Assembly: GCA_041739675.1 (NCBI GenBank)
Contig: JBGSNL010000003.1
Location: 5,846-69,845 of the forward strand
DNA from: a bacterium
Lineage (GTDB): Bacteria; UBA10199; 2-02-FULL-44-16; DYJF01
Length of the DNA: 64,000 nt
Direction: 5' to 3'
Shown here: piece by piece, positions 31,430 through 55,739 of the stretch
How the letters are laid out: every line of letters begins with the position of its first letter
Position numbering within the stretch: the stretch's first letter is position 1
Notes under the pieces: generated by a model
Database searches by the model: none
Told to the model about the DNA's origin: nothing
What the model saw: the letters and a program-made list of their open reading frames with translations, nothing else
Position numbers and translations under genes: made by a program

Positions 31430-31541
31430 GGTTTTCCTCCCGTTTGTAAAGTTCTGATAGCCCAAGCTCTTTCCAGAGTCCACCCTTTTCCTTTGACAGG
31501 TCAAACGGGCGCAATTACGCTTGGAAACGCGGAGGTGATTT

Positions 31542-31712
31542 ATGCAAATTACACGCAGACAATTCGGGCTGGCGATGGTCCTTGGAGCTTTGGCATTGGC
31601 ACTTTCAAGGATGTTCGGATTTCTTTTCCATAAGAGACCGGCTGACAGGGAAGTTTCGGGCGGAGGATACCCCGCCAAATACTGGAAACGCGCGGATCAT
31701 TTGGGCGGATAG
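31542..31712 (+). CDS. 56-codon small ORF encoding a twin-arginine-type signal peptide (leader/uORF or 5' duplication remnant)
   Basis: GGAGGTG RBS 4 nt before the ATG. MQITRRQFGLAMVLGALALALS is Tat-like (TRRQF followed by an h-region). Ends 20 nt before the Memo-AMMECR1 start. Confidence 0.3.
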   Translation: MQITRRQFGLAMVLGALALALSRMFGFLFHKRPADREVSGGGYPAKYWKRADHLGG

Positions 31713-31731
31713 TGTAAGCAAAGGGGGCGCC

Positions 31732-33201: not shown

Positions 33202-33210
33202 AATGTTTGG

Positions 33211-35031: not shown

Positions 35032-35104
35032 GTTTCCTCCTGTCAATCCTGTCAGGGATAGGTCATATCTAATTGATCGGGCGATGTATAGAGGAAATTG
35101 GGCC

Positions 35105-35141
35105 AAAAAAAAGGCCACTTGGTTGCCCAAGCGGCCCTTTT
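35105..35141 (-). terminator. Bidirectional Rho-independent terminator between the BNR lipoprotein gene and gene A
   Basis: 10 bp stem GGCCACTTGG / CCAAGCGGCC with loop TTGC. A-run on one side and T-run on the other. Confidence 0.65.
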
Positions 35142-35155
35142 TGGTTTCATTTCAA

Positions 35156-37753: not shown

Positions 37754-37782
37754 ATCCTAAGCCCCTTTCTTCCTTAGATTGC

Positions 37783-39708: not shown

Positions 39709-39769
39709 GTTTCCTCCTTAATTTCCCCCGATTCACCTTCAATTCATCTCAATTTGAAAAAACTCCTTC

Positions 39770-39882
39770 ATAATTATCTAGGTATGCATGCGATTCCGTC
39801 ATCCGGTGCTCCATAAGCCATGTCAGCGGGTCCGCCGATTTCAGTCGGGCGTACTCTGATCTCTCTGCACGCCGCTTGTGTC
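39770..39882. repeat. DNA-level repeat, copy 1 (3' end of gene C plus its 3' UTR). Near-identical to 42242-42350.
   Basis: Shares the exact runs GTCAGCGGGTCCGCCGATTTCAGT and GGGCGTACTCTGATCTCTCTGCACGCC and overall high identity with the second copy. Confidence 0.7.
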
Positions 39883-41204
39883 GGTTGCGTCGGTTCAGTC
39901 GGCTGAGTCTGCTGATTCGGCACGCAATGTCCGTGGTCTCTGTGTTCTCCAGGAGGACACGTGCGCGGCGTGGTCGGCCTTACAGGCGGTGTCACAGGCG
40001 GTGTCGGTTCGGTTGCGACCGGCTCTGCGGGAACAAATCCATAGATGCTGTTCATGATCCACTGCACGAGTTCCCTGCGCTCCGGATCGGAAATGAATCC
40101 AAGATATACGTTCATCACAGCATCAGAAGGTCTCTGTTCGGGAAGAGCGCAACTGCTAAAAAGTTTCGCAAGGGCATCGCGTGCTCTTGCAATGTAGGTA
40201 TTGGCGTACTCGGCCTGTCCCGTCGCCTGCGAACTGTTGGCCGCTCTCACATACCATGCGGCCATGACGATGTCGGCCATCTGGTTGTCCTGAAATTTCA
40301 CTGTCGAAGACAGGGCGGTCAGGGCCGCTTTTACCTGAGTTTCATTGAGGCCTTCAACCGGCGCAACTGCGGCCAGGAAGTAATCGATCGGGAAGGTTGC
40401 GGATGTTATCGTGCCGCAAGTCGTCGCACCGAATTTTTTGAATGCTTCCTGAACGGCCGCGATATAGGCGTCCACATTTGTGTTTGCCTCGGCCGCAAAT
40501 GACCATCTGGCCTGCGCGATGTTGCTGTACTCGCCAACGTAATCGAGGACGTCCGGATGCCACGTTGTGACGCCGGAGAGTGTGAGAATGTCGAAGATCT
40601 GTTTCTGTTCGCCGGCGTATCTGGATTCAATGTTGACATTCACGGGAACGCGTTCCGGCGTAAAGTACGTTCCGTCCGCCCACGTATACCACTTGTCGAC
40701 GTGGCACACGTTGTCCATGGTGAAAGGTCCCGTCCATGATTGCGTCATCGTCCAGTCTATTGCGTTGTCCGCCGTGAGACCTTTTTCACGTCCCCACAAA
40801 GAAAGAAGGGATCTGAACGAGGCATTGGTCATTCTTGCGTTGATCTGAATGTCGTTTTGTATGACCTTGCAGTAGCTGTCTTCCGGATTGAAATAAGTTC
40901 TTGGAGCTACGGGAGCTGCAGGAGCCGGTTGAGGCGCCGGAGCTGCTGTTTCCGGTTTTGCTGCGTCTTGTGCGACAAGTGCTACCGTTTCATCATCTTC
41001 ACCGCAGGCCGATGCTACAGCAACGAAACCTGTCACTGGCAAAACAATTTCAGGCGCCAAAATTGCAGCCGCTACCCATGCGGCGGCTCCCAGAGCCGCC
41101 AAGAGGTCTTCAGGATCTTCATGTGAAGCATTGGCATGCAATTGGCCGGTTGCAAAATCGTGTTCCCATTTTACGAGTCCGCCATCAAATCCACCTGAAA
41201 ACAT
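39774..41204 (-). CDS. Family member C: MFSGG N-terminus, internal hydrophobic segment ending VASAC, C-terminal Cys-bracketed motif
   Basis: RBS AAGGAGGAAAT then ATG. C-terminal ACREIRVRPTEIGGPADMAYGAPDDGIACIPR is shared with the 42247-44529 protein. A Pro-rich linker precedes it. Confidence 0.55.
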   Translation of the reverse strand: MFSGGFDGGLVKWEHDFATGQLHANASHEDPEDLLAALGAAAWVAAAILAPEIVLPVTGFVAVASACGEDDETVALVAQDAAKPETAAPAPQPAPAAPVAPRTYFNPEDSYCKVIQNDIQINARMTNASFRSLLSLWGREKGLTADNAIDWTMTQSWTGPFTMDNVCHVDKWYTWADGTYFTPERVPVNVNIESRYAGEQKQIFDILTLSGVTTWHPDVLDYVGEYSNIAQARWSFAAEANTNVDAYIAAVQEAFKKFGATTCGTITSATFPIDYFLAAVAPVEGLNETQVKAALTALSSTVKFQDNQMADIVMAAWYVRAANSSQATGQAEYANTYIARARDALAKLFSSCALPEQRPSDAVMNVYLGFISDPERRELVQWIMNSIYGFVPAEPVATEPTPPVTPPVRPTTPRTCPPGEHRDHGHCVPNQQTQPTEPTQPTQAACREIRVRPTEIGGPADMAYGAPDDGIACIPR

Positions 41205-41397
41205 ATTTCCTCCTTACAAACTAAATAAGCCCGAGGACGCGCTGAATTTCATCGTTACGCTACCCAGTTGCATTATCGGATGACCCCCAAAAATGTTGCG
41301 TCCTTTTTTCTACCATCCCCCTCAATTCGCCCACTTCTTGGTGGGAACCCGCCGAAGTTTCAGTGGCGGGGCCCTCATCCTTATTTTCGTGCGAAAT

Positions 41398-41440
41398 AGA
41401 AAAAAGTTGCGCGGTATTTTTAAGCAATACCGCGCAACTT
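41398..41440 (-). terminator. Rho-independent terminator after gene E (14 bp perfect stem)
   Basis: AAGTTGCGCGGTAT-loop-ATACCGCGCAACTT followed on the minus strand by a U-run. Confidence 0.7.
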
Positions 41441-41466
41441 GTAATACGCTGATATTATTAAGTATT

Positions 41467-42213
41467 TTAGTGCTGTCCTTGTGCCCCTTGGCCTGCTGTC
41501 CACGGCACTTGGAATCCGCGTCCGGTGCCCGCATCGGCTGCAGGAGGAGGAGAAGGAGGAGGTGGCGGCGGCGTGGTCGTCGGACCGCCTTCACTCGAAC
41601 ACCTTTCAGCAGCCCTTTGCCTTGCACACTCGATATCCCCTTGGCATTGTGTAATTTCCGTGGCTGTTGGCTGGCAATTACTAGTAGATGGCGGCTGCTC
41701 GTTCATTTCGCGATGTGAACATCTGTCTTGAATACAAGCCGCGTAATCTTGAACATCCGGTCTTGAACATAATACTGTGTCTGAAGGTGTCGGCACACAT
41801 TCATAATGTGCCTGGCATTCTGTTCCCGCCAGGCCGGCTCGTATGTCGTCAACGGAACAAGGCGGCAACTGTGTGGCAACGTTTTGGCCGCTTAGTCTGT
41901 TTGCAAGCTCGAGCAAGAAGGAGGCAAAAGTATATGTACCGCCCCACAAGTTGATGCCTCCGTTTGATGAGCACATTTCGTTTGATTCAGCGGTGGGGCA
42001 AGTTTTGAATATCGTGTTTGCGATCACATAAGCAAAGCCTTCAAAAATAGCTTTAAGATTTTCCGGCACACGCTGCAGGTTGAGCGTGTAGGTATTGGTC
42101 GTATCCTGTACGCACTGAGTTATCTTGTCTTCAGTCTGCTCATTAGCGCATGCGAGCGAGGTGATTCTATCAAGCGTACTTCCGACATTTTGCGTCTGTC
42201 CTGCTGAAATCAT
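41467..42213 (-). CDS. Family member E: MISAGQ N-terminus, Cys-rich and Pro-rich small protein
   Basis: RBS AAAGGAGG then ATG. M-I-S-A-G fits the family start. Many Cys residues. C-terminal poly-Pro stretch (PPPPPPSPPP). Confidence 0.45.
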   Translation of the reverse strand: MISAGQTQNVGSTLDRITSLACANEQTEDKITQCVQDTTNTYTLNLQRVPENLKAIFEGFAYVIANTIFKTCPTAESNEMCSSNGGINLWGGTYTFASFLLELANRLSGQNVATQLPPCSVDDIRAGLAGTECQAHYECVPTPSDTVLCSRPDVQDYAACIQDRCSHREMNEQPPSTSNCQPTATEITQCQGDIECARQRAAERCSSEGGPTTTPPPPPPSPPPAADAGTGRGFQVPWTAGQGAQGQH

Positions 42214-42241
42214 AAGGCCTCCTTTTGAAGCGTTGTTCAAT

Positions 42242-42350
42242 ATAAATTATCTGGGTACACAAGCAATGCCGTCATTTGGCTCTCCATAAGCTCTGTCAGC
42301 GGGTCCGCCGATTTCAGTTGGGCGTACTCTGATCTCTCTGCACGCCGGAG
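42242..42350. repeat. DNA-level repeat, copy 2 (3' end of gene B plus its 3' UTR). Near-identical to 39770-39882.
   Basis: Same exact runs as copy 1. Conservation extends past the stop codon into the AATTAT-rich 3' flank. Confidence 0.7.
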
Positions 42351-44529
42351 GCGGAGGAGGTGGTGGTGCTACGACTATCTTGCAATTATCGTCACAATTC
42401 GGAGTGCCGTCGCATTCCTCGCCGCGTTCCACTCTGCCGTTGCCGCATTCGATGGTAGGCGGTGGAACCGCATTCCTTGTGCAATCGTTTCTGCAGCCGT
42501 CGTTGTTATTTGTATTTCCGTCGTCGCACTGCTCGCGTCCTTCCACAACATGATCGCCGCACCTGATCGTGTGCACAGGCTCACCTTGAGGTGTCACGCA
42601 CGAACCGGCTAAACCCGTCGTCGTCGCCTGTCCGTCGGGGCACGGTTCGCAGCTGCAATCTTCCGGATTGAGCACTTGCGGCGGTGTGTTCTGGCTGAAG
42701 CACCACTCTGCGGCAGTCATCTGCATGTTGCACTGCTGCGTAGCCTCAACGAACATCCTGGCAGGGCTCTGCTCATGGCAGCACTCTCCCGGCGTGACAA
42801 CATGCGGCTGCCTTATGCGGTCTCGCAACGTTTCTTCTCCATGTATCGGCTGTCCACCCAGCGGCCAGAAGTCGAAGGCGATTCCGTCATTCATCTTCTG
42901 GATGTATTCAAGCAGAAGGCGTGACCAGTAGTGGTCATCGGCGCAGGTGGGGCAACGATCATACGAGCGTTGTACCGCACCGTTGATCTCCTTTAGTATC
43001 TCCGTCCTGATCGTCTCTTTGGTTTCACCCGCGCGGCGCCAGATATAATCGTTGGCGTATTGGCGGATGGACATCCTCATGTCGAGCCCCGTCGCTGGAT
43101 CGGCAAAGCCTCCCATGACGAGAATGATGTTGTCCTGCTCGTCCAACTCGACCCACCACTCGCCCGTGTCTATCTTGCCCGTGCTGTCCGCGTTTGACAG
43201 TTCGTCCCAGCGCATGTGGTAAATGGCGGCTGTCTGGAAATACAAAGATGCGGCATGGCCCGCCAAAGGTGTAGCCCAATCAATACGGTTGGACTGCGCG
43301 CGGCCCGGAGTTCCCCAATCGATGTCCCGCCAGGTGAAATCGAAGTCGAACTTATGCATATCGGGGTATTTGACCCCGGCGGCTGCGGTCATATTCATTA
43401 GCACAAGCTCGTATCTTTGGACCGCGTCGGGGTTGTTGTTAGAAAGGTCGGTCATAAGCACGGAGACTTCGTTCATCCTATTCCTGATATCATCTTGTAT
43501 TTGACCTATTAAAACATCATCCGCTTCAATGATAGTCTGGTCTTTCCCATCACTTACATCTTTCTCTCTTTTGGCGACGGCTTCTTCAAGTTTCTTGAAG
43601 AGGTCTTGGAGGTTGAAAGGCAAGCGCCGGAGGTTATCTTCCAGCGCATATTCCAGCGGCGTCCTGGGCAGAGTATAATCTGGTTCGAAGAATTTCTTGA
43701 AATCCTCAAGGAAGGCGGCGCGAACGTCGGGATAACGCGATGACACCAGCAGATTTGCAGTGTGGTTGAGATACTCCGTGGCCTCTACGAGATTCGGGGG
43801 CCAGAAAAACCAGCCGGGTATTGCGCTGGTGAGCCTTGTCGCCTCCATCAGTTTTATGATGGACCATACTCTCGAATCATCGTCATTGAGACCGTTTGAA
43901 AAACTCCAGAAAGAGGCGGGCGTGTCCGACCACGTCCAGAAGCCGTCGGTTTCAAGGATGTTGCGTCCGCATATGACGTCTTTGTGATCGGGGTTGTAGA
44001 TGCGCCACGCATTAAAGGAACAAGTATCTTGCGCCCCGAAAAAGCCCGTAAAGTTGCCGGGGTGGTCGGAGCAGATAATTCCACCGTGCACCATCGAGCC
44101 CCAGAATTCGAAAGACTCCTGGCTTCCGCGCGAGCGACATGCGCCGAGGTCCTCGTCGTAATAATCAGTGAGCGATTTGTCGGCAAGCTCATCATAGTTG
44201 ACATAGTCCTCTCTCAGATATTTCCTTTCAGCGAGAGGCGTTGTCTCTTTTCTGGGGTCGGGCGTGGGGATTTCGTTGCCGCCACAGCCCGCGCCTAAAA
44301 TACTGAGCGCCACTTTTCCGATCGCACGCTCCGGCGCTGTAAAATTATCGACGAAATTCCCAAGTGGATCGTCGCTCGTGACGTACGCCTCTTCCAACGC
44401 TTCACGAAAGAAATTGTTGGCTGCGGAGTACTGTTCGGCAACTGTGTCCAAACTGGTACAGTAGTCACCTATGCACGCTTCATAATTGAACGGATTAAAG
44501 TCGCTTAATGAAATGCCCCCTGAAAACAT
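42247..44529 (-). CDS. Family member B: conserved N-terminal module, Myxococcus-type cysteine-rich repeats and the C-terminal Cys-bracketed motif
   Basis: RBS AGGAGGCAAC then ATG. MFSGGISLSDFNPFNYEACIGDYCTSLDTVAE matches gene A. C-terminal region has CGDHVVEGREQCDDGN...DGC and CGNGRVERGEECDG repeats. The last 31 aa match gene C. Confidence 0.6.
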   Translation of the reverse strand: MFSGGISLSDFNPFNYEACIGDYCTSLDTVAEQYSAANNFFREALEEAYVTSDDPLGNFVDNFTAPERAIGKVALSILGAGCGGNEIPTPDPRKETTPLAERKYLREDYVNYDELADKSLTDYYDEDLGACRSRGSQESFEFWGSMVHGGIICSDHPGNFTGFFGAQDTCSFNAWRIYNPDHKDVICGRNILETDGFWTWSDTPASFWSFSNGLNDDDSRVWSIIKLMEATRLTSAIPGWFFWPPNLVEATEYLNHTANLLVSSRYPDVRAAFLEDFKKFFEPDYTLPRTPLEYALEDNLRRLPFNLQDLFKKLEEAVAKREKDVSDGKDQTIIEADDVLIGQIQDDIRNRMNEVSVLMTDLSNNNPDAVQRYELVLMNMTAAAGVKYPDMHKFDFDFTWRDIDWGTPGRAQSNRIDWATPLAGHAASLYFQTAAIYHMRWDELSNADSTGKIDTGEWWVELDEQDNIILVMGGFADPATGLDMRMSIRQYANDYIWRRAGETKETIRTEILKEINGAVQRSYDRCPTCADDHYWSRLLLEYIQKMNDGIAFDFWPLGGQPIHGEETLRDRIRQPHVVTPGECCHEQSPARMFVEATQQCNMQMTAAEWCFSQNTPPQVLNPEDCSCEPCPDGQATTTGLAGSCVTPQGEPVHTIRCGDHVVEGREQCDDGNTNNNDGCRNDCTRNAVPPPTIECGNGRVERGEECDGTPNCDDNCKIVVAPPPPPPPACREIRVRPTEIGGPADRAYGEPNDGIACVPR

Positions 44530-44726
44530 GTTGCCTCCTAATCAAGGTCGTTGTTTTAATTGACCTCAACCCCTTATCGCGGTTTTTCAAAAATAGTTGC
44601 TTGGTTTTTTAAGGTACCCTGAGAGGCCCGTTTATCAATAAGAATAGGGGTATGGCAAGCCGGAAAAGAGCTTTATTGCTTATTGGCGGAAAGTCTGCTA
44701 GGGAGCCCCCAACAATCGGAGGTAAA

Positions 44727-46127
44727 ATGAAGCCCGATATCAATGAGTTAGTAAGCGCGCATCAGGGAAGGCAGTGGGAGCTTTTTGGAAAATACGTCAA
44801 TCCGCAGCTCGCCTGCGTCGTCAAAACAATAGGTTTCAACCGCAACTATGTCCGTGCCGACGGGCCCTTTCTATATGATGAAGAAGGAACAGAGTATCTG
44901 GATTTTCTGGCGGGCTACGGCGTCTACAACATGGGGCGGAACAACAAGACGATAAAAGAAGAATTGCACAAGGCCCTCGACGCAAACTGGCCCAACATGG
45001 TGCAGATGGACACGCCGCTTCTCGCGGGACTTCTGGCGGAGAGACTTTTGTCGGTGGTGAATCAGTCGGGTGAAAGGCTGGACACCGTTTTTTTCACGAA
45101 CTCCGGAACTGAGGCGAACGAGGGCGCGATAAAATTCGCGCGCAAGGCGACGGGCCGCCCGCGCATCCTATTCTGGGAACACGCGTTTCACGGCCTGACC
45201 ACCGGCTCGCTGGCGCTCAACGGCAACAAGGAATTCAAAAAAGGATTCGGCGATCTGCTTCCGGGCTGCATGCCTATTCCCTTCAACGATCTTTCCGCGC
45301 TTGAGAATGAGTTGAAGAAAAAAGACTGCGCGGCATTTATCATTGAAGCAGTTCAGGGCAAGGGTGTCTACGTTGCCGATCCTCAATTTTACACAGAAGC
45401 GCAAAATCTCTGCCGCAAATACGGTACGCTTTTTGTGATCGACGAGGTGCAGACCGGGTTCGGCCGCACCGGCAAATGGTTCGCCCATCATCATTGGGGG
45501 CTGTCGCCCGATATCGTCACCGTGGCAAAGGCGCTCTCCGGCGGCTACATCCCCGTGGGCGCGATCTGCTTCAGACGCGAGATCTACGACAAGGTATTCA
45601 ACGGAATGGAGCAGTGCGTGGTCCACTCCAACACTTTCGGACGCAACGTGCTTGCGATGACCGCGGGGCTCGCATCGATAGATTACATGGAAAAAGAGGG
45701 AGTCATCGAGAACGCGGCACGCATGGGCGAAAAAATCGTGACGGGTCTCCGCGAAATGGCCGGAAGATATGAGATGATAAAAGAGGTGAGGGGGCTGGGG
45801 CTCATGGTTGGAATTGAGTTCGGCGAGCCGAAATCTTTTTCGCTCAAGGCCGGTTGGAAGCTTCTGCACGCGGTGAACAAAGGGCTCTTCGGCCAGATGG
45901 TCGTGGTGCCTTTGATGTGCGATCACCACATACTCACGCAGGTTGCGGGCCACGATGTGGATATCGTAAAACTGTTGCCGCCTCTCATCATCAACGAGTC
46001 TCATGTCGAGCGCTTCCTCACGGCGTTCGATTGCGTCATGAAGGAGTGCCACCGCTTCCCCGGCAACGCATGGACGGTCGGCAAGAGACTTGCGACAGAA
46101 GCACTCAAGGCAAAAAAAGCAATCTAA
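44727..46127 (+). CDS. Class III (PLP-dependent) aminotransferase, ornithine/acetylornithine aminotransferase-like (HpnO-like candidate)
   Basis: GGAGG RBS. Class III motifs FTNSGTEANEGAIKFAR and DEVQTGFGRTG. PLP-Lys context AKALSGG. Confidence 0.8.
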   Translation: MKPDINELVSAHQGRQWELFGKYVNPQLACVVKTIGFNRNYVRADGPFLYDEEGTEYLDFLAGYGVYNMGRNNKTIKEELHKALDANWPNMVQMDTPLLAGLLAERLLSVVNQSGERLDTVFFTNSGTEANEGAIKFARKATGRPRILFWEHAFHGLTTGSLALNGNKEFKKGFGDLLPGCMPIPFNDLSALENELKKKDCAAFIIEAVQGKGVYVADPQFYTEAQNLCRKYGTLFVIDEVQTGFGRTGKWFAHHHWGLSPDIVTVAKALSGGYIPVGAICFRREIYDKVFNGMEQCVVHSNTFGRNVLAMTAGLASIDYMEKEGVIENAARMGEKIVTGLREMAGRYEMIKEVRGLGLMVGIEFGEPKSFSLKAGWKLLHAVNKGLFGQMVVVPLMCDHHILTQVAGHDVDIVKLLPPLIINESHVERFLTAFDCVMKECHRFPGNAWTVGKRLATEALKAKKAI

Positions 46128-46130
46128 TCG

Positions 46131-48863
46131 TTGGCGGCTTGGGGGTTCTTCGCCGATTCTATGCGCACGAGATTTTTCACCTGGCTTGGAAATTTCATAC
46201 CGCGGCACCCGTGGAAGATAGTCGTCACGGCCCTCGTCCTCACGGCGGTCTCCGGGGTGCTCGCGATAACGAGTCTTTCGCTCGACGCCGATCAGGACAA
46301 CCTCATTTCAGAAAAACTTGAGTATCATAAGCGCTACAAGGATTTCCTGCGGGAGTTCGGCGATCAGGAATATCTCTATCTCGTCGTGGAATCGGGCGGC
46401 GACCTTGCCCGCGCAAAAAAATTCGTCAAGTCGGCTGCCGACAGGATTTCGCGTCTGCCCGACATCAGCGAGGTGACGTACAAGATAGACAACCCCGCGT
46501 TAGAGAAAAGTTTTCTGCTTTTGTTGAATCAGGACCAGTTGAGATCTCTGGCCGATATGGTGGGCGGAGGGACCTTTTCGATACAGAGGTTCGCCTCTCT
46601 TTCAAGTCTTGAGGAGCTTTTTTCCGTCATCAATGAAGAGATCCAAAAACCGGTCTCTCCCAAAGAAGAGGAGAAACTGACTTTAGGTTTCAAGTTTTTA
46701 GACGGACTTGTCGGTTCACTGGACAGCGCGGTCACAAACGGCACGCCCTACGAATCTCAGCTGGAGAATCTCTTTTTCGGCGAGGGGAGCTTCGATCCCG
46801 AAGGCTACCTCGTCACAAAAAACAAAAAATTTCTCATCTGCCTCATAATGCCCGCAAAAAATTATGGAACGCTCGCGGTCATCGAAGAGCCGCTTAAGAG
46901 AATCAGAAACGCGATTGAAGAGACAAGATGGGAGTTTCCGGGAATCAAAGCCGGCCTGACGGGCAGGCCCGTTCTGGCAGCGGACGAAATGGCCACGTCA
47001 AACCGTGACATGAACATGGCTACGATACTTTCTCTGATCGCGGTGGCCGTGGTCTTCATAATCGCCTTTCGGAGTGCGGCGCGCCCACTGCTTGCAATGG
47101 CGGCCCTTGTCATGGGGATCGCCTGGACATACGGGTTCGTGACCGTTGCATTCGGGACCTTGAATCTTCTCTCCATAGTATTTGCGATCATACTTGTGGG
47201 CGCATCGATTGAATACGGCATCCACGTCGTCGCAAGATATCAGGAGGAGCTCTCGCGCCACAGAAACATCGACGAGGCGGTGAAAAGAATGCTTCTGGCG
47301 ATAGGCAAAGCCGATCTCACCAGTGCCGCGACAACGGCGGGAGCGTTCGCCACGCTTCTCTTCACGAACTTTCGCGCGTTAAAGCAGCTGGGCGCCATTG
47401 CGGGCATGGGCATTGTATTCTGTGTTTCCGCCATGCTCTTTGTTCTGCCCGCGCTTCTCGTGATCAGGGACCACAAACTGTACGGTGACAGGAAAATGCC
47501 GGCGTGGGCAAAGCCCAAGCCAGCAATGCAGGTGACGGCCATCACGAAGCTTTACCGCCGCCCCGCGTTCCTGCTTGCAGGCGCTGCAATCGTCACGATT
47601 GCGTTATCCCCCTTCGTTCGAAAGATTTTTTTCGATTTCAATCTTTTAAATCTCCAGGCCAAGGGGATCGAGTCCGTCGAATACGAACGGAAGCTAATCA
47701 CGGAATCGGATGAATCGACATGGTTCGCGAACGCCGTTGCGAAAACACCGGAGGAGTCCGCAAAGCTTGCCGAAAAATTCAGAAAACTTCCGGTGGTGAA
47801 AAAGGTGGAGGATATAACATCCATCGTCCCGCTCGATCAGAAGGCGAGGATGTTTCTCATAAGAAGGATGGCGCCGGCGTTTGAAAATATAAAAGGCATA
47901 AAATTCGATGGCGGCAATGTGCCGGTCGACGCAGCGACGCTGGCAAGGCAGATATCGTCATTCGACAGCTCGCTCAGCCGTCTTGAGGAGGAGGCCTTTT
48001 CCGCCGGACGCATAGATGCTGTTGAGGAGCTTGAAGGATTCAGGGACAGGGTTTCAAAACTGGCGCGTGATATCGAAGCGGCGCCTGAGGCGTCATTTCG
48101 CATCGCTGAATTCGAAAAGGCCTTTTTCGGCGATCTCCACGACAAACTTGATCTTCTCGCCTCCGGTATGCACCCTGCGCCCTTGAAAATAGGGGATATG
48201 CCGCCCGCGATCCAGCGAAGGTTCATAAGCCCCAAAGGGAATTACGCGATATACATAACGCCCGCTGAGGACATCTGGAACGAGGAGAGTCTCAAGCGTT
48301 TTGTCACGGAGATAAGAAAAGTCGATCCGCTTGTTCTGGGAACGCCGATAGAAGTTTACGAATCGGGACGGATCATGGTCCGCGCGTTTCTGATCTCCGG
48401 CGTGCTTGCGTTCATAGTCATCTACATGCTGGCGCTCATAGACTTCAAGTCCATCAGGGCGGCGGCGATGGCGACAATGCCGCTTTTTTTAGGCGGCCTC
48501 TGGCTCGTTTCGATCATGGGGCTTTTTGGGATCCCTTTCAATCTGGCGAACTTTTTTGCTATTCCAATCATAATAGGAGTGGGCGTGGACAGCGGCGTCC
48601 ATATCATCCATCGTCTGAAGCAGGAGCGTGAGCTTCCCGCCCTGGGCCGTGCAACGGGAACGTCTGTTTTGCTCACCGCCGCCACAAACGCGATAGGGTT
48701 CGGAATGATGATGATTGCGGCTCACAGGGGGATAGCGAGTTTAGGAATGATCATGGCGATCGGGACCATCTGCTGTGCGGTTGCAGCACTTCTTGTCATG
48801 CCGCCGATCGCATGGAGATTTTTGGGTTTTCATGATGAAAAATCCCGAGGGGGGATAAAATGA
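46131..48863 (+). CDS. MMPL/RND-superfamily lipid exporter (HpnN-like candidate)
   Basis: Two-lobed architecture: each lobe has an N-terminal TM helix, a large periplasmic domain and a cluster of five or more TM helices. About 910 aa. Confidence 0.7.
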   Translation: MAAWGFFADSMRTRFFTWLGNFIPRHPWKIVVTALVLTAVSGVLAITSLSLDADQDNLISEKLEYHKRYKDFLREFGDQEYLYLVVESGGDLARAKKFVKSAADRISRLPDISEVTYKIDNPALEKSFLLLLNQDQLRSLADMVGGGTFSIQRFASLSSLEELFSVINEEIQKPVSPKEEEKLTLGFKFLDGLVGSLDSAVTNGTPYESQLENLFFGEGSFDPEGYLVTKNKKFLICLIMPAKNYGTLAVIEEPLKRIRNAIEETRWEFPGIKAGLTGRPVLAADEMATSNRDMNMATILSLIAVAVVFIIAFRSAARPLLAMAALVMGIAWTYGFVTVAFGTLNLLSIVFAIILVGASIEYGIHVVARYQEELSRHRNIDEAVKRMLLAIGKADLTSAATTAGAFATLLFTNFRALKQLGAIAGMGIVFCVSAMLFVLPALLVIRDHKLYGDRKMPAWAKPKPAMQVTAITKLYRRPAFLLAGAAIVTIALSPFVRKIFFDFNLLNLQAKGIESVEYERKLITESDESTWFANAVAKTPEESAKLAEKFRKLPVVKKVEDITSIVPLDQKARMFLIRRMAPAFENIKGIKFDGGNVPVDAATLARQISSFDSSLSRLEEEAFSAGRIDAVEELEGFRDRVSKLARDIEAAPEASFRIAEFEKAFFGDLHDKLDLLASGMHPAPLKIGDMPPAIQRRFISPKGNYAIYITPAEDIWNEESLKRFVTEIRKVDPLVLGTPIEVYESGRIMVRAFLISGVLAFIVIYMLALIDFKSIRAAAMATMPLFLGGLWLVSIMGLFGIPFNLANFFAIPIIIGVGVDSGVHIIHRLKQERELPALGRATGTSVLLTAATNAIGFGMMMIAAHRGIASLGMIMAIGTICCAVAALLVMPPIAWRFLGFHDEKSRGGIK

Positions 48864-49504
48864 AAAAATTCGCTTTCTTGCTGGCGCTGGCGCTCGGTTT
48901 CCTTTTTGTGGTTCCGGCGCAGGCCGAAGAGAAGGACATGTTGCGGAAGGGTGTTGACCGCAGATACCGTCTGTCAAAGAAACTCCAGAGCGAGATAAAC
49001 ATCAACGGCGGTGATTTTCTGGGCGATGAGACGCATAATTCCTGGAGCGTGGGCGCAAAATATTTTCTTCACATTAACAACACGATCGCGGTCGGCGCGT
49101 CATATATGTACACGCCGATCTACACCGATTTCGATTCTACGTTCGGCAAAACGGTGAAAAGCAGACAGCAGCACTTCATTGACGGCGAGGTGATGTTTTC
49201 AAACGACGCGGCGCTTCGCGCGGGGAACAGCGTTATCGAATTCGATCTGTTCGGAACATTGGGCATGGGAACAGAATGGATCAACAGGCATTGGGAGCCG
49301 GTCGGGGTGATCGGCGGCGGCATAATAGTTTACACTCCCTGGCCCTGGTTTGCGGCCCGCGTCGACGTCACCAACTATATCCATCCCACCCCCAATCCCA
49401 GCGGGGACACAATCAACGCGGATATAAATTTCGCCGCGGGAGTTTCGTTCTTTTTTCCTGTGAAGAGAATCAACGAAGAGGGCGGGCCCGTTTTGAGCCC
49501 GTAA
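48860..49504 (+). CDS. Outer-membrane beta-barrel protein, unknown function
   Basis: Signal peptide MKKFAFLLALALGFLFVVPAQA. Alternating amphipathic strands. C-terminal aromatic-rich segment. Translationally coupled (ATGA) to the MMPL gene. Confidence 0.5.
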   Translation: MKKFAFLLALALGFLFVVPAQAEEKDMLRKGVDRRYRLSKKLQSEININGGDFLGDETHNSWSVGAKYFLHINNTIAVGASYMYTPIYTDFDSTFGKTVKSRQQHFIDGEVMFSNDAALRAGNSVIEFDLFGTLGMGTEWINRHWEPVGVIGGGIIVYTPWPWFAARVDVTNYIHPTPNPSGDTINADINFAAGVSFFFPVKRINEEGGPVLSP

Positions 49505-49544
49505 TTCGTTGACAATCAATTGTTTTATCGGATAGGTAATAAAT

Positions 49545-49781
49545 GTGCAGCCGAATCGTATGGAAAGATGCTGGCGCAGTTTGAAGCCTGAAATACTTGC
49601 CAGATGGGACAAGCTCTCGGAGTACGATTTAACGGGCATCGGCGGCGATTTCGACGGTTTGGTCGAGATCATAAGACAGCGCTATTTTCCCGGCAGATCG
49701 AAGCTCTCAATTGAAGCGGAAATCAGAGATTGGTTGGTTTTGCAGATGGATGAGTTGGAAAAAAGTGAACTTTGCGAGTGA
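49545..49781 (+). CDS. CsbD-like small stress-response protein
   Basis: W..L...DL....G..D.LVEIIRQRY....EAEIRDWL matches the CsbD family consensus. Confidence 0.45.
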   Translation: MQPNRMERCWRSLKPEILARWDKLSEYDLTGIGGDFDGLVEIIRQRYFPGRSKLSIEAEIRDWLVLQMDELEKSELCE

Positions 49782-49791
49782 AGGAGGGGTC

Positions 49792-50913
49792 ATGAAAGAT
49801 AGAGAAAAATTCTCGGTATTGGACAAGCCCGCCGGTTATAATTTTCCGGAGCTCTCAAAAGAAGACTCGGCCAAAAAGCGCGAAATACTGTCCAGAACCG
49901 TGGAGTCGGTCGACCTTGAAAAAATAAAAGACATCGGCGATCTGGTTGCCGCATATGGGAACGCATCTGTGCAGGCCAGGAACATCGGCGCGTGCGCGCA
50001 GATCTACGACCGCATGCTGCGCGACCGCGACCGCCCGACCGTCATGCTGGGGCTCGCGGGCCCGCTCATTGCAGCGGGGCTGCGCAAAGTTATCAGGGAC
50101 ATGGTCGCCCACAACATGGTCGATGTCATAGTATCCACAGGCGCCATCCTCTATCAGGACCTCTATCAGTCGCAGAATTTTAAGCACTACACCGGCACGC
50201 CAAACGCGGACGACAAAGAGCTCCGCGATCTCTACATCGACCGCATCTATGACACATATGTGGATGAGTCGCAGTTCTGGCGTCTGGATTGCTCGGTCGG
50301 CAGTTTTGCGGACAAGCTTCCCCCGGGGCGATATTCTTCCAGACATTTTTTGGAGGAGCTGGGCCGCTCAGTGAACGATGAAAACTCAATTCTCGCCACG
50401 GCGGCCAAGCACGGAATTCCGGTCTTTTCGCCGGCGATCAACGATTCGTCGATAGGAATCGGTCTCACTGAACATTATCACCGCTGCGTGAAAGAGAACC
50501 GCCGCGGCGTCACGATAGACTCTATCCAGGACAACTACGAACTGACCCAGATCGTCGTCAAATCGAAGGCGACCGCCGCGGTCTACATCGCGGGCGGTGT
50601 TCCCAAAAATTTCATCAACGACTCCGTTGTCATGGCCTACATCTTCAACATGGACACTGGCGGCCACCGCTACGCGATCCAGCTGACCACCGACGTGCCG
50701 CATTGGGGCGGGCTCTCCGGTTCAACCCTCTCCGAGGCGACGAGCTGGGGCAAGGTCTCCAAGGAGGCCACGCACTGCATGGCCTTTGTCGAGCCGTCCG
50801 TCTCACTGCCGCTGGTCGTGGGCTCCGTGTTCAAGGGCTGGCAGGCAACGAAGAGGCCCAGGCTCTCGTTCGAATGGGATCCGCCGATCCTCAAAAACCT
50901 GAAGACAACCTAG
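49792..50913 (+). CDS. Deoxyhypusine synthase family protein (DHS-like / homospermidine-synthase-like)
   Basis: GAAGGAGG RBS. DHS-like core including VDVIVSTGAILYQDL and the GGVPKNF Rossmann-like segment. Confidence 0.6.
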   Translation: MKDREKFSVLDKPAGYNFPELSKEDSAKKREILSRTVESVDLEKIKDIGDLVAAYGNASVQARNIGACAQIYDRMLRDRDRPTVMLGLAGPLIAAGLRKVIRDMVAHNMVDVIVSTGAILYQDLYQSQNFKHYTGTPNADDKELRDLYIDRIYDTYVDESQFWRLDCSVGSFADKLPPGRYSSRHFLEELGRSVNDENSILATAAKHGIPVFSPAINDSSIGIGLTEHYHRCVKENRRGVTIDSIQDNYELTQIVVKSKATAAVYIAGGVPKNFINDSVVMAYIFNMDTGGHRYAIQLTTDVPHWGGLSGSTLSEATSWGKVSKEATHCMAFVEPSVSLPLVVGSVFKGWQATKRPRLSFEWDPPILKNLKTT

Positions 50914-50917
50914 CGTC

Positions 50918-51631
50918 ATGGACGCATCGGAACTCGAAAAACTTACGCTCGGCCAGGATATGGATGCCCGCTCCGCCACGGAGATCGTGGGTTGGGCGTG
51001 GGAAACCTTCAAAGACGATCTTGTTTTTTCCTGCAGCTTCTCCGCTGGCGACATGGTCCTTCTGGATATGCTGGCAAGGATCGACGCAAAACCGAAAATA
51101 ATTTTTGTAGATTCCTGCCGCCTGATTCCGGAGACGTATGAGTTCATCGACGTCGTGATGGATCGCTACCGCATAAAACCCGTTTTTTATTTTCCCGATA
51201 CGAAAAAACTTGCGGCCTATCTTTCAGAGAACGCTCCTAATGCGTTCCGGCACGATCGCGAGCTGAGACTCGCCTGCTGCGAGATAAGAAGGCACGAGCC
51301 TTTGAGACGCGCGAACGCGGGCCACAAAGCGTGGATGGCGGGCTTGAGGCGTTCTCAATGTGAGACGCGGAGGGCCGTAACGAAAGTGTCCATGGATCCG
51401 GTGCATGAAGGGATCGCCAAGATATGTCCAATTGCAGACTGGAGCTGGGAACAGGTTTTCACATATGCAAAAGAGCACAGCGTTCCGGTGCAGCCGCTCT
51501 ACGAACGGGGCTACATGAGCATCGGCTGTGCGCCGTGCACGAGGGCCTCGTCCTCAGGGGACGAGCGGGCCGGCCGCTGGTGGTGGGAGTCCTCCTCAGA
51601 GAGGGAAGACGGGGTTCACTTCATTTTCTAA
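50918..51631 (+). CDS. PAPS/APS reductase family protein (CysH-like, with an Fe-S Cys pair and CxxC)
   Basis: N-terminal [12 protein letters not shown] (PP-loop-like). CC (LACCEIRR) plus SIGCAPCT cysteines as in APS reductases. Starts 5 nt after the DHS-like gene. Confidence 0.6.
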
Positions 51632-53309
51632 GATGCACCATCAAAATTGAAATGGCGGCGGGCGTAATGCCGGGGATGCGCGATGCCTGGGCGAGGCTCA
51701 CGGGTCTTATTTTTTGGAGTTTTTCTCTCACCTCGTTTGACAAACCGTTGACCGGCCCGTAGGCGAATTGACGCGGGATCAGAAAATCTTCCAGTTCGCC
51801 CAGTCTTGCGGCCATGCGTTTCTGCGATTTGAGATAACCATCGTATTTGAGTTGGATTGTCGCGGCCTCAACCACTTCATCGTCAAACGTTCCTGACTTC
51901 CCCGCATTTTTCTGAAGAATTTCGACCGCCTCTTCAATTCGCTGTCTCTTCTTCTCAAAATGGTTCCATTCCGGGTCGCCCACGAGGCCGGCTTTTCTCC
52001 CGACCGTTCGTAATCTTATGTCCGCATTGTCCTCACGAAGCAAAAGCCTGTGCTCCGCGCGCGACGTGAACATCCTGTAGGGTTCGCTCGTCCCCTTTGT
52101 CACGAGATCGTCTATCAGGACGCCGATGTAGGCTTCGCTTCGTTTGAGGATGAGAGGTTCTTTTCCCCTCAATGCGAGCGCCGCATTGATTCCTGCCATG
52201 AGCCCCTGTGCCGCCGCTTCTTCATAACCCGAAGTTCCGTTTATCTGGCCGGCAAGATAAAGACCGGCTATCCGTTTTGTTTCAAGCGTGGGATCAAGCT
52301 GCGTGGGGAAGACAAAATCGTATTCGACGGCATATCCCGGCTGGAGGATTTTTGCGTTCTCAAGCCCCGGAATGGTTCTGAGCATTTCATATTGCACATC
52401 AAGCGGAAGCGAGGTGGAAAGCCCGTTCACATATATCCAGTCGGTTGCGAGCCCTTCTGGCTCAAGGAAGAGCTGATGGCGCTCTTTGTCGGCGAAGCGC
52501 ACTACCTTGTCTTCGATGGAGGGGCAATATCTCGGGCCTACGCCCGCAATCTTTCCCGAATAGAGAGGCGAGCGGCTAAGACTTTTCATGATAACGTCGT
52601 GCGTTTGTTTGTTCGTGTATGTGATGTAGCAGACCATCTGCGGCAGAAGCGGGGCCTTTTCAAAAAATGAAAAGCGCGGCGGAGGATCGTCGCTCTCCTG
52701 TTTCTGGCAGGCAGAAAAATCGATTGTGTTCTTGTCAAGGCGGGGGCAGGTGCCGGTCTTGAGCCGCCCCATTTCAAAGCCAAGATTTCTTAACGACGCA
52801 GAAAGGCCTTTGGATGCAAAATCGTCTATGCGTCCACCGTCTTTGTGCTCCATCCCGAAGTGGAGAAGGCCGTTCAAAAACGTTCCGGTCGTGATGATAA
52901 CTTTTTTTCCTCTTTCTAAAAGCGCTGGAATATCTTCGGCTATTTCCTCACGCAGAGTGATGTTGGGTTCGTGCTCAAGGACTTCACGCATTCTTTTGTG
53001 ATAAAGCGCGCGGTCGGATTGGCAGCGTGTCGAGCGGACGGCAGGTCCTTTGCTCATGTTGAGGCGGCGGAACTGTATGCCAGTGGCGTCGGCGGTGCGC
53101 CCCATCTCGCCGCCAAGTGCGTCGATCTCGCGGACGATATGTCCTTTGGCCAGGCCGCCTATCGCCGGGTTACAGCTCATCTGGGCTATTGTATCCAGGC
53201 GCCCCGTGAGAAGGAGGACCTTCGCGCCCATGCGCGCGGCCGCCAAGGCCGCCTCGCATCCGGCATGACCTGCTCCGACAACGATTATATCGTATTTTGC
53301 TGGGGTCAT
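51621..53309 (-). CDS. mnmG: tRNA uridine 5-carboxymethylaminomethyl modification enzyme MnmG (GidA)
   Basis: N-terminus [23 protein letters not shown] and GidA-like sequence throughout. Confidence 0.85.
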
Positions 53310-54292: not shown

Positions 54293-54495
54293 AGTTCCTC
54301 CCACTGTTTGTTCAGCCTGATATAAAGCAAGAAGAATGCCAAATTCGCATGGAGAAAAAGTCAATGATTGTGAAGTGTTAAAGTTTGGTGATATGAAACC
54401 CACATTATATATATGGAGAATCGGTCCAAATATGGGGTCTTGAGTCACCATAAGAAATCTTGCCTTTTATTGATTCTTTCCATAGGCTGCGCCTC

Positions 54496-55218
54496 ATGAA
54501 AAACGGAAAAGCTTTGATCACGGGTTCCACGGGTGCCATCGGCGGGGCAATTGCCGTTGAGCTGGCAAAGAGGGGCTACGATCTGGCCCTTCATTATAAT
54601 ACGAATAAAAAGAAGGCCATGCAATTGGCCGAACAGACAAGATCGGTCGGTAAGAAGGTTTTTGCAGTGGGCGCCGATATCGGGCAGGTGGGGGAGATAA
54701 AAAAGCTCGTTGAAAGCGCCGTGTCCGGTTTGGGGGGGTTGAGCCTTCTGGTCCACTGCGCCGCGGTTTTTATGAAGACCTCATTTGAAGATGTGAAAGA
54801 AGAAGTCTTTGACGACATCATAAATATCAATCTCAAGGCCGCTTTTTTTGTCGCGCAGGAGGCCTCGCGCGTGATGGAAGAGGAAGGCCGGATGATCTTC
54901 ATGAGCGATATTGCCGCCGTAAAGCCGTATGCGGGATATCTGCCGTACTGCATCGCGAAGGCGGCGGTTGATAGCCTGGTTCGCGGGCTCGCGAAAAAAT
55001 ATGCGCCCAGAATTGCGGTCAATGCGATCGCGCCCTATATCGTTACGCGCCCTAAAGGGATGAGCGATGCAGGCTGGAACGATCTCATCAGCAAGACGCC
55101 GGCCAGGCGCGAGAGCCCGCCGCAAGAAATTGCGCAGATTGTGACGTTTCTGGCAAAGGCTTCGCCGTCGCTGACGGGACAGATCATCGCGGTGGACGGG
55201 GGTCGATTATTGCGGTGA
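54496..55218 (+). CDS. SDR-family oxidoreductase (possibly pteridine-reductase-like)
   Basis: TGSTGAIGGAIA Rossmann motif. YxxxK in YCIAKAAVD. Followed by a queD/PTPS-family gene. Confidence 0.65.
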   Translation: MKNGKALITGSTGAIGGAIAVELAKRGYDLALHYNTNKKKAMQLAEQTRSVGKKVFAVGADIGQVGEIKKLVESAVSGLGGLSLLVHCAAVFMKTSFEDVKEEVFDDIININLKAAFFVAQEASRVMEEEGRMIFMSDIAAVKPYAGYLPYCIAKAAVDSLVRGLAKKYAPRIAVNAIAPYIVTRPKGMSDAGWNDLISKTPARRESPPQEIAQIVTFLAKASPSLTGQIIAVDGGRLLR

Positions 55219-55337
55219 AGGCGGAGGCGTAGGGCAACTCTTCGCAGTCTCTCGGCTTGGCTGGTGCACACCAGATTATGGGCGTGGGAGAGAGACGAGA
55301 AGAGTTGGCCGAGAGCGTCCGCCGTCGAGGAGAAAAA

Positions 55338-55739
55338 ATGTATTCCATCAGCAAATCGTTTTCATTCTGTTACGGTCACAGGCTGCTTGGCGACAAGGGC
55401 AAGTGCAGGAACCTTCACGGGCACACCGCAAAAGTGGTCATACATCTGGAATCGGGTATTTTGGACGAGAACGGGATGGTCTGCCACTTCGACAATCTGA
55501 AAAATACGATCGGAAAATGGATCGAGGAGAATCTCGATCACGCGATGCTGCTCTCAAAAGACGATCCTGCGGCGAAGGTGTTAAAAGAGATCGGCGAGCG
55601 TCTGTATGTCATGGAGACAAATCCCACGGCCGAAAGCATCGCGAAGCTGATTCACACGCAGGCGAAATCCCAAAAGTTGCCCGTTGCGCGAGTAGAAATG
55701 TGGGAATCCGACACGGCCAAAGCTTCATACAGCGTGTAA
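55338..55739 (+). CDS. queD: 6-carboxy-5,6,7,8-tetrahydropterin synthase / 6-pyruvoyl-tetrahydropterin synthase family
   Basis: FSFCYGHRLLGDKGKCRNLHGHT matches the PTPS/QueD Cys/His-motif family. About 133 aa. Confidence 0.7.
   Translation: MYSISKSFSFCYGHRLLGDKGKCRNLHGHTAKVVIHLESGILDENGMVCHFDNLKNTIGKWIEENLDHAMLLSKDDPAAKVLKEIGERLYVMETNPTAESIAKLIHTQAKSQKLPVARVEMWESDTAKASYSV

Follow-up and report, generated by a model that had tools for sequence, protein, structure and literature searches.

In a 64 kb stretch of bacterial DNA (contig JBGSNL010000003.1; hereafter the window, with positions counted from its first letter), a gene of the deoxyhypusine synthase (DHS)/SpeY family is followed directly by a gene resembling cysH, which belongs to the family of reductases for adenosine 5′-phosphosulfate (APS)/3′-phosphoadenosine 5′-phosphosulfate (PAPS). 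We found that the CysH-like protein belongs to a conserved and selected subfamily that keeps the iron-sulfur (Fe-S) cluster and every substrate contact of the APS reductases, yet has both catalytic residues replaced. The pair is real and operonic, and we lean slightly towards the view that two functions were joined within one lineage, as opposed to a two-enzyme pathway that is conserved. The more interesting outcome is the second gene, whose product is a derivative of the Fe-S APS reductases, maintained by selection, that lacks both the catalytic Cys and Lys144 and that automated annotation will mislabel as CysH. We describe here the anatomy of the pair, the residue replacements and their conservation, the purifying selection on the second gene and the distribution of both genes.

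The DHS-like gene encodes 373 amino acids (ATG at 49792, stop at 50913, + strand) and matches the Pfam domain DS (PF01916) with 300 bits (E 1.9e-89). The CysH-like gene encodes 237 amino acids (50918–51631, + strand) and matches PAPS_reduct (PF01507) with 138 bits. An earlier account of this DNA, made from its letters without database searches (the sequence-only reading), had located both open reading frames (ORFs) and assigned their families correctly. It had placed 5 nt between them, where the sequence has 4 nt (CGTC, 50914–50917). Because the spacer is only 4 nt long, co-transcription and translational coupling are implied, that is, the DHS-like and CysH-like genes would form one transcription unit.

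Catalytic residues of the CysH-like protein

Profile and structure comparisons were used to place the CysH-like protein. It scored 222 bits against NCBIfam NF002537 (cutoff 154), 205 bits against TIGR02055 APS_reductase (cutoff 235) and a borderline 165.2 bits against TIGR00434 cysH (cutoff 165.1). A phmmer comparison with the Pseudomonas aeruginosa APS reductase (PaAPR, structure 2GOY) gave an E value of 6.7e-40, and the identity to 2GOY is 36%. The AlphaFold model, which has a pLDDT (predicted local distance difference test) of 88 and a disordered C-terminal tail, reached template-modelling (TM) scores of 0.83–0.88 to 2GOY. For the comparison of individual residues, we set the 13 members of its clade, described below, against 107 generic homologs and 2GOY, and read the Fe-S columns over 27 aligned sequences.

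The [4Fe-4S] ligands are all present. The first two, C120-C121 (51275–51280), align with PaAPR C139/C140 and are invariant in 27 of 27 sequences; the third and fourth, C204 (51527–51529) and C207 (51536–51538) of the C-x-x-C motif at 51527–51538, correspond to PaAPR C228/C231 and are likewise invariant in the 27 sequences. The spacing CC-X~80-CXXC is that of the APS-specific subclass. The CC...CxxC cysteines were thus seen correctly in the sequence-only reading. In addition, the phosphosulfate-binding Arg pair R217 and R220 (PaAPR R242 and R245) of the R(S/E/A)GR(W/F) motif is kept and invariant, as are the tail residues E230, G232 and the ribose-binding H234 (PaAPR E255, G257 and H259).

What the sequence-only reading overlooked is the catalytic motif, which reads REDGVH instead of [KR]ECG[LI]H. 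In the C-terminal tail, E230-D231-G232-V233-H234 (51605–51619), D231 (GAC, 51608–51610) stands at the position of the nucleophilic Cys, which is C256 in PaAPR and C249 in the Mycobacterium tuberculosis (Mtb) enzyme. Asp fills this position throughout the 13-member clade, whereas 106 of the 107 generic homologs have Cys. The second replacement concerns Lys144 of PaAPR: the motif IRK[VI]EP has become IRRHEP, so that R125-H126 (51290–51295) take the place of the Lys and of the Val/Ile that follows it. Arg is present at the first of these positions in 13 of 13 clade members, against Lys in 107 of 107 generic homologs, and His at the second in 13 of 13, against none of the 107.

In PaAPR, the conserved K144 bridges the cluster and the sulfate. 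The C-terminal Cys is common to all sulfonucleotide reductases and essential, and it forms the S-sulfocysteine intermediate; the Mtb C249S protein binds APS and gives no thiosulfonate intermediate (PMC1175818). For PaAPR it has been reported that the role of K144 is to place the sulfate and to stabilise the transition state, that K144A suffers a pronounced loss of activity and that C256S abolishes activity (bioRxiv 10.64898/2026.09.04.749436). Judged by its residues, the CysH-like protein does not qualify as a genuine APS reductase, and the canonical mechanism appears to be barred. The sequence-only reading had suspected that this was no ordinary sulfate-assimilation enzyme, and the facts bear it out: the nucleophilic Cys and Lys144 are gone, and profile searches found no sat/cysDN, cysC, sulfite reductase (sir) or cysK in the window. 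The related paired loci are likewise without sulfate-assimilation genes.

We considered and rejected three other accounts of the missing Cys. The Asp codon itself contradicts a sequencing error or a recoding event: 8 independent loci have GAC or GAT there, and two bases would have to change to give a Cys codon. Cys170, in KICPLADW, was examined as a relocated nucleophile; it is invariant in the clade, yet it also occurs in 3 of the 107 canonical enzymes, which keep ECGLH (e.g. P0142). Cys39 is nearly invariant in the clade, yet it is present in at least 10% of canonical enzymes.

A further Cys, Cys67 (51116–51118), lies in the sequence DSCRL of the window's protein, which is DSGRL in the other clade members and canonically DTGRL. 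This Gly-to-Cys change, at the position of PaAPR G88, is unique to the window's genome.

A pair restricted to a single narrow lineage

We searched 5.8 billion proteins for relatives of the CysH-like protein. The clade with Asp at the Cys position (the Asp-variant clade) consists of 13 clusters with 65–100% identity and at least 355 bits, and below it the matches drop sharply to generic APS/PAPS reductases with at most 50% identity and at most 241 bits. A search of 1.84 billion representatives at 50% identity with the clade profile found no more distant Asp-variants; in that library the clade is a single representative, and the next match falls from 477 to 272 bits. The genomic context could be read for 10 of the 13 clusters. 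In these, and in 5 further metagenome loci, the CysH-like gene always lies directly after DHS and before a convergent mnmG, and it either overlaps the DHS-like gene by 4 nt or is set apart from it by a few nt and at most ~44 nt. None of the 45 CysH loci outside the clade that came from the same scan has a DHS neighbour. Thus, the pair is confined to one narrow uncultured bacterial lineage.

The clade members share one long syntenic block, which comprises an aminotransferase, an HpnN-like resistance-nodulation-division (RND) transporter, an outer-membrane protein (OMP), CsbD, DHS, CysH, the convergent mnmG, a short-chain dehydrogenase/reductase (SDR), 6-pyruvoyl-tetrahydropterin synthase, NifU, PAP2, ThyX and ribonucleotide reductase (RNR). 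Because of this shared block, the DHS/CysH adjacency is of little independent weight. The adjacency does persist in two loci (L083 and L090) in which the upstream region is rearranged.

We also examined the distribution from the side of the first gene. A DHS profile scan over one genome per GTDB species gave 80 loci with DHS proteins 61–89% identical to that of the window, and their flanks, up to 8 kb per side, were searched by tblastn with the window's neighbour genes. The CysH-like gene was found at only 1 of the 80 DHS loci, that of the nearest relative (L002), a metagenome-assembled genome (MAG) labelled Bdellovibrio sp. FI88_57_8, in which the DHS and CysH-like proteins are 89% and 68% identical to those of the window. 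A general DHS and CysH module, for which the sequence-only reading had proposed a survey of neighbourhood conservation, was therefore not found; the pair is present in one of 80 DHS-bearing species and in one syntenic lineage.

The sister lineages indicate how the pair may have arisen. In the next-closest lineages (DHS 69–74% identical), the order class-III aminotransferase, OMP, CsbD, DHS and convergent mnmG is kept, which marks mnmG as the neighbour that the DHS-like gene ancestrally had on its right. DHS directly adjoins mnmG, with no cysH between them, at three loci (L006, L015 and L017), and unrelated minus-strand genes fill the junction at two others (L003 and L009). Because the sister lineages show either direct abutment or unrelated genes, the DHS/mnmG junction is best read as a variable, insertion-permissive site and the CysH-like gene as a lineage-specific arrival there. 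A CsbD-like homolog lies directly 5′ of DHS in the paired clade and also in several unpaired sisters (L003, L011–L014), so the CsbD/DHS association is older than the DHS/CysH one.

In more distant DHS carriers (Nitrospinota, Omnitrophota, Margulisiibacteriota and some archaea), the DHS-like gene sits amid unrelated housekeeping genes; the set given for Nitrospinota comprises radA, ispD, a peroxiredoxin gene (bcp), a cation-efflux gene (czcD) and mutY. We sought a conserved functional neighbour of the DHS-like family across the 80 loci and rejected the idea, as the synteny found was lineage-specific and of the housekeeping kind. Co-evolution of the DHS active site with the presence of CysH was rejected as well. 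Only 8 positions, none of them catalytic, set the DHS of the paired lineage apart from 78 unpaired homologs, and its active site is unchanged.

For the CysH-like gene, the ratio of nonsynonymous to synonymous substitution rates (dN/dS) was 0.09–0.18 where dS was not saturated; synonymous sites were otherwise near saturation. The ORF is intact in 13 of 13 clusters, and 85 of its 237 columns are invariant, with all ligand-binding and Fe-S residues included. The low dN/dS, together with the GAC/GAT Asp codon in 8 loci, indicates that the gene is under selection. It is kept by purifying selection and is neither an artefact nor a decaying relic.

A second Cys-less clade in Myxococcota

A screen of representatives and a follow-up search identified a second clade that lacks the Cys and has Arg at the Lys144 position. 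This clade belongs to Myxococcota (P0265, P0398–P0402 and L112) and consists of 237-aa proteins. It keeps the Fe-S ligands and the E-x-G-x-H tail and has Arg, Leu or Ala at the Cys position. Its operon encodes a PEGA-domain protein, an uncharacterised protein of ~180 aa and the CysH-like protein, with no DHS. No homologs of the PEGA protein or of the 180-aa protein were found in the window. The Myxococcota and the DHS-linked Cys-less clades group together in 61–63% of neighbour-joining bootstraps, including those with the diagnostic columns masked. Because the Myxococcota clade occurs without DHS, the loss of the catalytic Cys/Lys pair is not tied to DHS. Moreover, a new nucleophile or base shared at the former Cys site is argued against, because the residue there varies across the wider group.

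The genes of this clade were located at 2308–3033 in L112, 2525–3238 in L145, 8001–8714 in L147 and 1982–2695 in L149, and the proteins have the tail ER[GL]xH and the motif GRWAFE. The operon is often found near Ser/Thr kinases, and one member is annotated as ‘phosphoadenosine phosphosulfate reductase’.

The DHS-like protein

The Pfam DS domain was matched over nearly all of its own length by the DHS-like protein, which scores below the cutoff of every NCBIfam DHS/SpeY model (DHS NF002006, 336 bits, cutoff 434; SpeY NF002699, 331 bits, cutoff 500). The catalytic Lys is kept: K321, in the sequence SWGK, is the equivalent of human K329 and is invariant across 19 homologs, and a Glu is retained six residues before it. 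In the alignment, I223 and L308 are found at the positions of human D243 and D316, and Asn273 (50608–50610) at that of human DHS His288. CdmS has F204 and L286 at the D243 and D316 positions (PMC10981699). As a criterion, this hydrophobic pocket carries a caveat, because Leu is also found at the second of these positions, the D316 equivalent, in the archaeal DHS 7CMC. Characterised bacterial DHS homologs (SpeY/CdmS) couple two agmatines to N1,N9-bis(guanidino)homospermidine, which a ureohydrolase or iminohydrolase then takes towards homospermidine (PMC10981699, PMC13625781). Its residues suggest that the product of 49792–50913 is probably a SpeY-like, NAD-dependent aminobutyl transferase of the agmatine-coupling (SpeY/CdmS) type.

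No arginine decarboxylase (ADC), agmatinase or agmatine iminohydrolase/G44G ureohydrolase gene was found in the window, and the most frequent neighbour clusters across the 80 related loci lack these polyamine partner genes too. The decarboxylase and the hydrolase partners may be encoded elsewhere in the genome. We use the label ‘SpeY-like’ only, because the SpeY equivalog cutoff was missed and no clustering with arginine decarboxylase or agmatinase was seen.

The motif GVPKN[FY]IN is invariant across the whole DHS-like subfamily, including its archaeal members; the Pyrococcus horikoshii DHS, like the human enzyme, has His at the position of Asn273. DHS-like proteins 63–67% identical to that of the window were found on contigs assigned to Hadarchaeota, Brockarchaeota and Thaumarchaeota (L029, L031, L032, L034 and L038), which implies a recent inter-domain transfer, or mis-binning.

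Interpretation of the pair

In the reading that we prefer, the first gene would encode a NAD-dependent enzyme of the SpeY/CdmS type, which would form an enzyme-imine on Lys321 and couple aminobutyl/agmatine units towards homospermidine. This enzyme would work autonomously, as is presumably the case in Nitrospinota, Omnitrophota and ‘Deltaproteobacteria’, where many genomes carry it with no CysH neighbour. The second gene would descend from a bacterial [4Fe-4S] APS reductase and would have been inserted between the DHS-like gene and mnmG in an ancestor of the lineage whose closest named MAG is ‘Bdellovibrio sp. FI88_57_8’. Its product has very probably kept the ability to bind APS or an adenine nucleotide like it, because the fold, the cluster ligands, R217/R220 and the tail His are all kept. 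The Cys-to-Asp and Lys-to-Arg replacements imply that no S-sulfocysteine intermediate would be formed and that no sulfite would be released by a thioredoxin ping-pong mechanism. We infer the identity of the ligand, the activity and the absence of coupling with the first gene, and we picture the second protein as a repurposed nucleotide-binding Fe-S protein with a non-canonical function. It might be a catalytically silent pseudoenzyme that senses APS/AMP or the redox state, or it might pass an activated group to a small external nucleophile.

Several points weigh against this reading. All Asp-variants with readable context, in the 10 of 13 clusters and in the metagenome loci, directly follow DHS, even in the rearranged L083 and L090, and no Asp-variant was found elsewhere among the 5.8 billion proteins. 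Such a strict co-occurrence of Asp-variant and DHS would also be expected from a real functional partnership. Tight translational coupling usually means stoichiometric co-production. The ligand binding of the CysH-like protein and its loss of reductase activity are predictions made from sequence. The absence of sulfate-assimilation genes, ADC and agmatinase applies only to the window and the related loci that were searched. Finally, the sisterhood of the two Cys-less clades is moderately supported and could reflect long-branch attraction.

A rival explanation is a coupled module. The Cys-less protein would then use APS, or another adenylylated anion, to modify an amine or guanidine that the SpeY-like enzyme takes as substrate or makes as product, or it would sense APS and regulate the DHS-like enzyme in a complex. 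The chemistry could be N-sulfonation, or an adenylyl transfer with sulfate as the leaving group and Asp231 as the general base. Such a module would account for the DHS neighbour in all 10 of the 13 clusters with context and in the 5 metagenome loci, and for the CsbD-DHS-CysH unit that outlasts the upstream rearrangement in L083 and L090. It is also favoured by Asp231, Arg125 and His126, whose invariance within the clade suggests a defined new active-site chemistry. However, the clade is narrow and its synteny is region-wide, so the adjacency provides little independent information, and the partner is missing in 78 of the 80 other DHS-bearing species. The active site of DHS is the same in the paired clade. 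In the related Cys-less Myxococcota proteins, R, L or A takes the place of the Asp, and no DHS gene lies next to them; chemistry of this kind is, moreover, not known for the PAPS_reduct fold. Overall, we consider a coupled module unlikely, though it is the best of the alternatives. The sequence-only reading had stated that no established pathway joins the DHS and CysH families, and we found none either; its suggestion that the pair acts jointly on a polyamine or nucleotide substrate is pure speculation.

More daring, and correspondingly improbable, is the idea that the Cys-less, Arg144 proteins constitute a new functional class, derived from the Fe-S APS reductases, that uses or senses APS without a covalent enzyme intermediate. 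In the paired lineage, the Asp-variant would then cooperate with the SpeY-like enzyme, e.g. by moving a sulfuryl or adenylyl group of APS to the nitrogen of a polyamine or guanidine, which would give a new modified polyamine.

It is also quite improbable that the CysH-like protein works as an assimilatory APS reductase, stands beside DHS by chance and takes its nucleophile from Cys39, Cys170 or a thiol in trans. The score above the NF002537 cutoff, the full set of substrate-binding and cluster residues, and the invariance (Cys170) or near invariance (Cys39) of the two cysteines within the clade are compatible with it. The essential Cys is nevertheless missing in 13 of 13 clade members and Lys144 is replaced too; Mtb C249S gives no thiosulfonate (PMC1175818), and C256S PaAPR is reported to be inactive (bioRxiv 10.64898/2026.09.04.749436). 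Because both Cys170 (3/107) and Cys39 (at least 10%) also occur in canonical enzymes, neither carries the signature of a relocated nucleophile, and neither the window nor the related loci contain sulfate-assimilation genes. The sequence-only reading had itself raised the counter-scenario of a bona fide APS reductase linked to DHS by accident. One half of this scenario stands, in that the linkage has the look of an insertion specific to the lineage; the other half fails, as the enzyme is no genuine APS reductase.

A functionless, decaying relic, that is, a pseudogene in the making after the loss of sulfate assimilation, would explain why two catalytic residues are gone and no pathway partners are nearby, but we regard it as very improbable, given the intact ORF in 13 of 13 clusters, a dN/dS of 0.09–0.18 across lineages with saturated synonymous sites, the 85 of 237 invariant columns with ligand-binding and Fe-S residues among them, the invariance of the replacement residues themselves and the preserved translational coupling.

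Organization of the locus and neighbouring genes

The region from 49.5 to 51.7 kb contains three close-packed genes on the + strand (CsbD-like, DHS-like and CysH-like), followed by the convergent mnmG. The CsbD/YjbJ-like protein (78 aa; 49545–49781, + strand) is encoded immediately 5′ of the DHS-like gene, and its NCBIfam match is weak and below cutoff (NF007748, 30 bits). A ribosome-binding site, GGAGG (49783–49787, + strand), can be read from the sequence 4 nt before the DHS-like ATG. On the other side, mnmG (gidA; 51621–53309, – strand; Pfam GIDA, 544 bits) shares 11 nt with the 3′ end of the CysH-like gene.

A scan for promoters and terminators gave counts not above those in shuffled sequence, with nothing between the DHS-like and CysH-like genes. 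No riboswitch or regulatory RNA (guanidine, SAM and others) of any Rfam family reached the gathering threshold in the whole 64 kb window, and at E<1 the region 44300–52000 gave a single Rfam match, which is at chance level. The window contains genes for haem biosynthesis, gidB, mnmG, thyX, class II RNR, thiI, NifU and transporters. As for a defence context, PADLOC gave just a weak, domain-level match to BrxP (49 bits).

Upstream, a class-III aminotransferase gene (44652–46127), for which the best NCBIfam match is the PigE aminotransferase domain, is followed by a gene for an HpnN/BstA-like RND (MMPL) transporter (46131–48863, + strand; TIGR03480, 568 bits, below cutoff) and by one for a myxobacterial-type OMP beta-barrel (48860–49504). 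The order aminotransferase, OMP beta-barrel, CsbD-like, DHS-like is kept in sisters without the CysH-like gene, and this block may represent an older functional neighbourhood in which the DHS-like gene stood. The RND transporter stands between the aminotransferase and the OMP only in the CysH-paired lineage; the sister lineages have aminotransferase-OMP-DHS without it (compare L005, L008, L009, L015, L017 and L018). The transporter is thus restricted in the same way as the CysH-like gene, which suggests that two genes were gained in the same block and the same lineage.

Downstream, the SDR gene (54460–55218, + strand) and the 6-pyruvoyl-tetrahydropterin synthase gene (55329–55739, + strand), followed by NifU, PAP2, ThyX and class II RNR, are syntenic in all relatives of the paired lineage. 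The SDR/6-pyruvoyl-tetrahydropterin synthase block has no bearing on the DHS/CysH pair. Further upstream, the – strand of 29699–44529 carries a run of large ORFs of 659, 639, 865, 641, 476, 257 and 760 aa that are nearly without Pfam matches, the exceptions being TPR repeats and a sub-threshold DUF4215 repeat near the C-terminus of a Cys-rich protein. This run may represent an uncharacterised secreted or cell-surface system.

Significance

Sulfonucleotide reductases are treated as mechanistically uniform, with a universal and essential C-terminal Cys and a key Lys144. The CysH-like subfamily described here would be either a case in which the APS scaffold supports a new enzyme chemistry or an Fe-S pseudoenzyme or sensor that arose naturally. 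It also carries a risk for annotation. The proteins score above an NCBIfam cutoff, and a relative already bears the name of a PAPS reductase, so assimilatory sulfate reduction would be attributed in error to these uncultured bacteria of groundwater and sediment when their metabolism is reconstructed. With the DHS-like partner comes a large and widely transferred SpeY-like subfamily with no visible ADC or agmatinase partner, which bears on bacterial homospermidine biosynthesis. For now, the impact is limited by the restriction to a small uncultured lineage.

Comparison with known systems

The DHS-like protein has in common with SpeY and CdmS the DS domain, the catalytic Lys, the Glu six residues earlier and hydrophobic residues at the D243 and D316 positions, as well as a bacterial, patchy distribution that resembles horizontal transfer. 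It differs from them in its score (331 bits against the cutoff of 500) and in the absence of a cluster with arginine decarboxylase, agmatinase or iminohydrolase. With archaeal and eukaryotic deoxyhypusine synthases it shares the fold, the Pfam DS domain (an NAD-binding fold) and the Lys329 equivalent, whereas the Asp243 equivalent is Ile and the His288 equivalent is Asn. We know of no eIF5A/aIF5A, the substrate of deoxyhypusine synthase, in bacteria.

The closest known counterparts of the CysH-like protein are the [4Fe-4S] APS reductases of P. aeruginosa (2GOY) and M. tuberculosis (7LHR), which have the same fold, the CC...CxxC cysteines, the R-x-G-R-W motif, the E-x-G-x-H tail and a length of ~237 aa. 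In contrast to these enzymes, the CysH-like protein has Asp for Cys256, Arg for Lys144 with a new His after it, Ser for the Thr of LDTG and a one-residue deletion; it has no sulfate-assimilation neighbourhood and always lies 3′ of the DHS-like gene. The Myxococcota Cys-less clade resembles it in the Fe-S ligands, in the change of K144 to Arg, in the loss of the Cys with E-x-G-x-H retained and in an ‘ACGF’ variant of the P-loop. That clade differs in having Arg, Leu or Ala rather than Asp at the Cys position, GRWAFE rather than GRWWWE, and a PEGA operon without DHS. The adenine-nucleotide alpha-hydrolase fold is also used outside sulfate assimilation, by BrxP (BREX), the CysH-like protein of type IV-B CRISPR systems, DndC and FAD synthase, and these non-sulfate relatives are only distantly similar to the CysH-like protein (BrxP, 49 bits; FAD synthase, TM ~0.6). 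Unlike the BrxP and CRISPR relatives, and outside any defence or CRISPR context, the CysH-like protein is a close derivative of the true Fe-S APS reductases.

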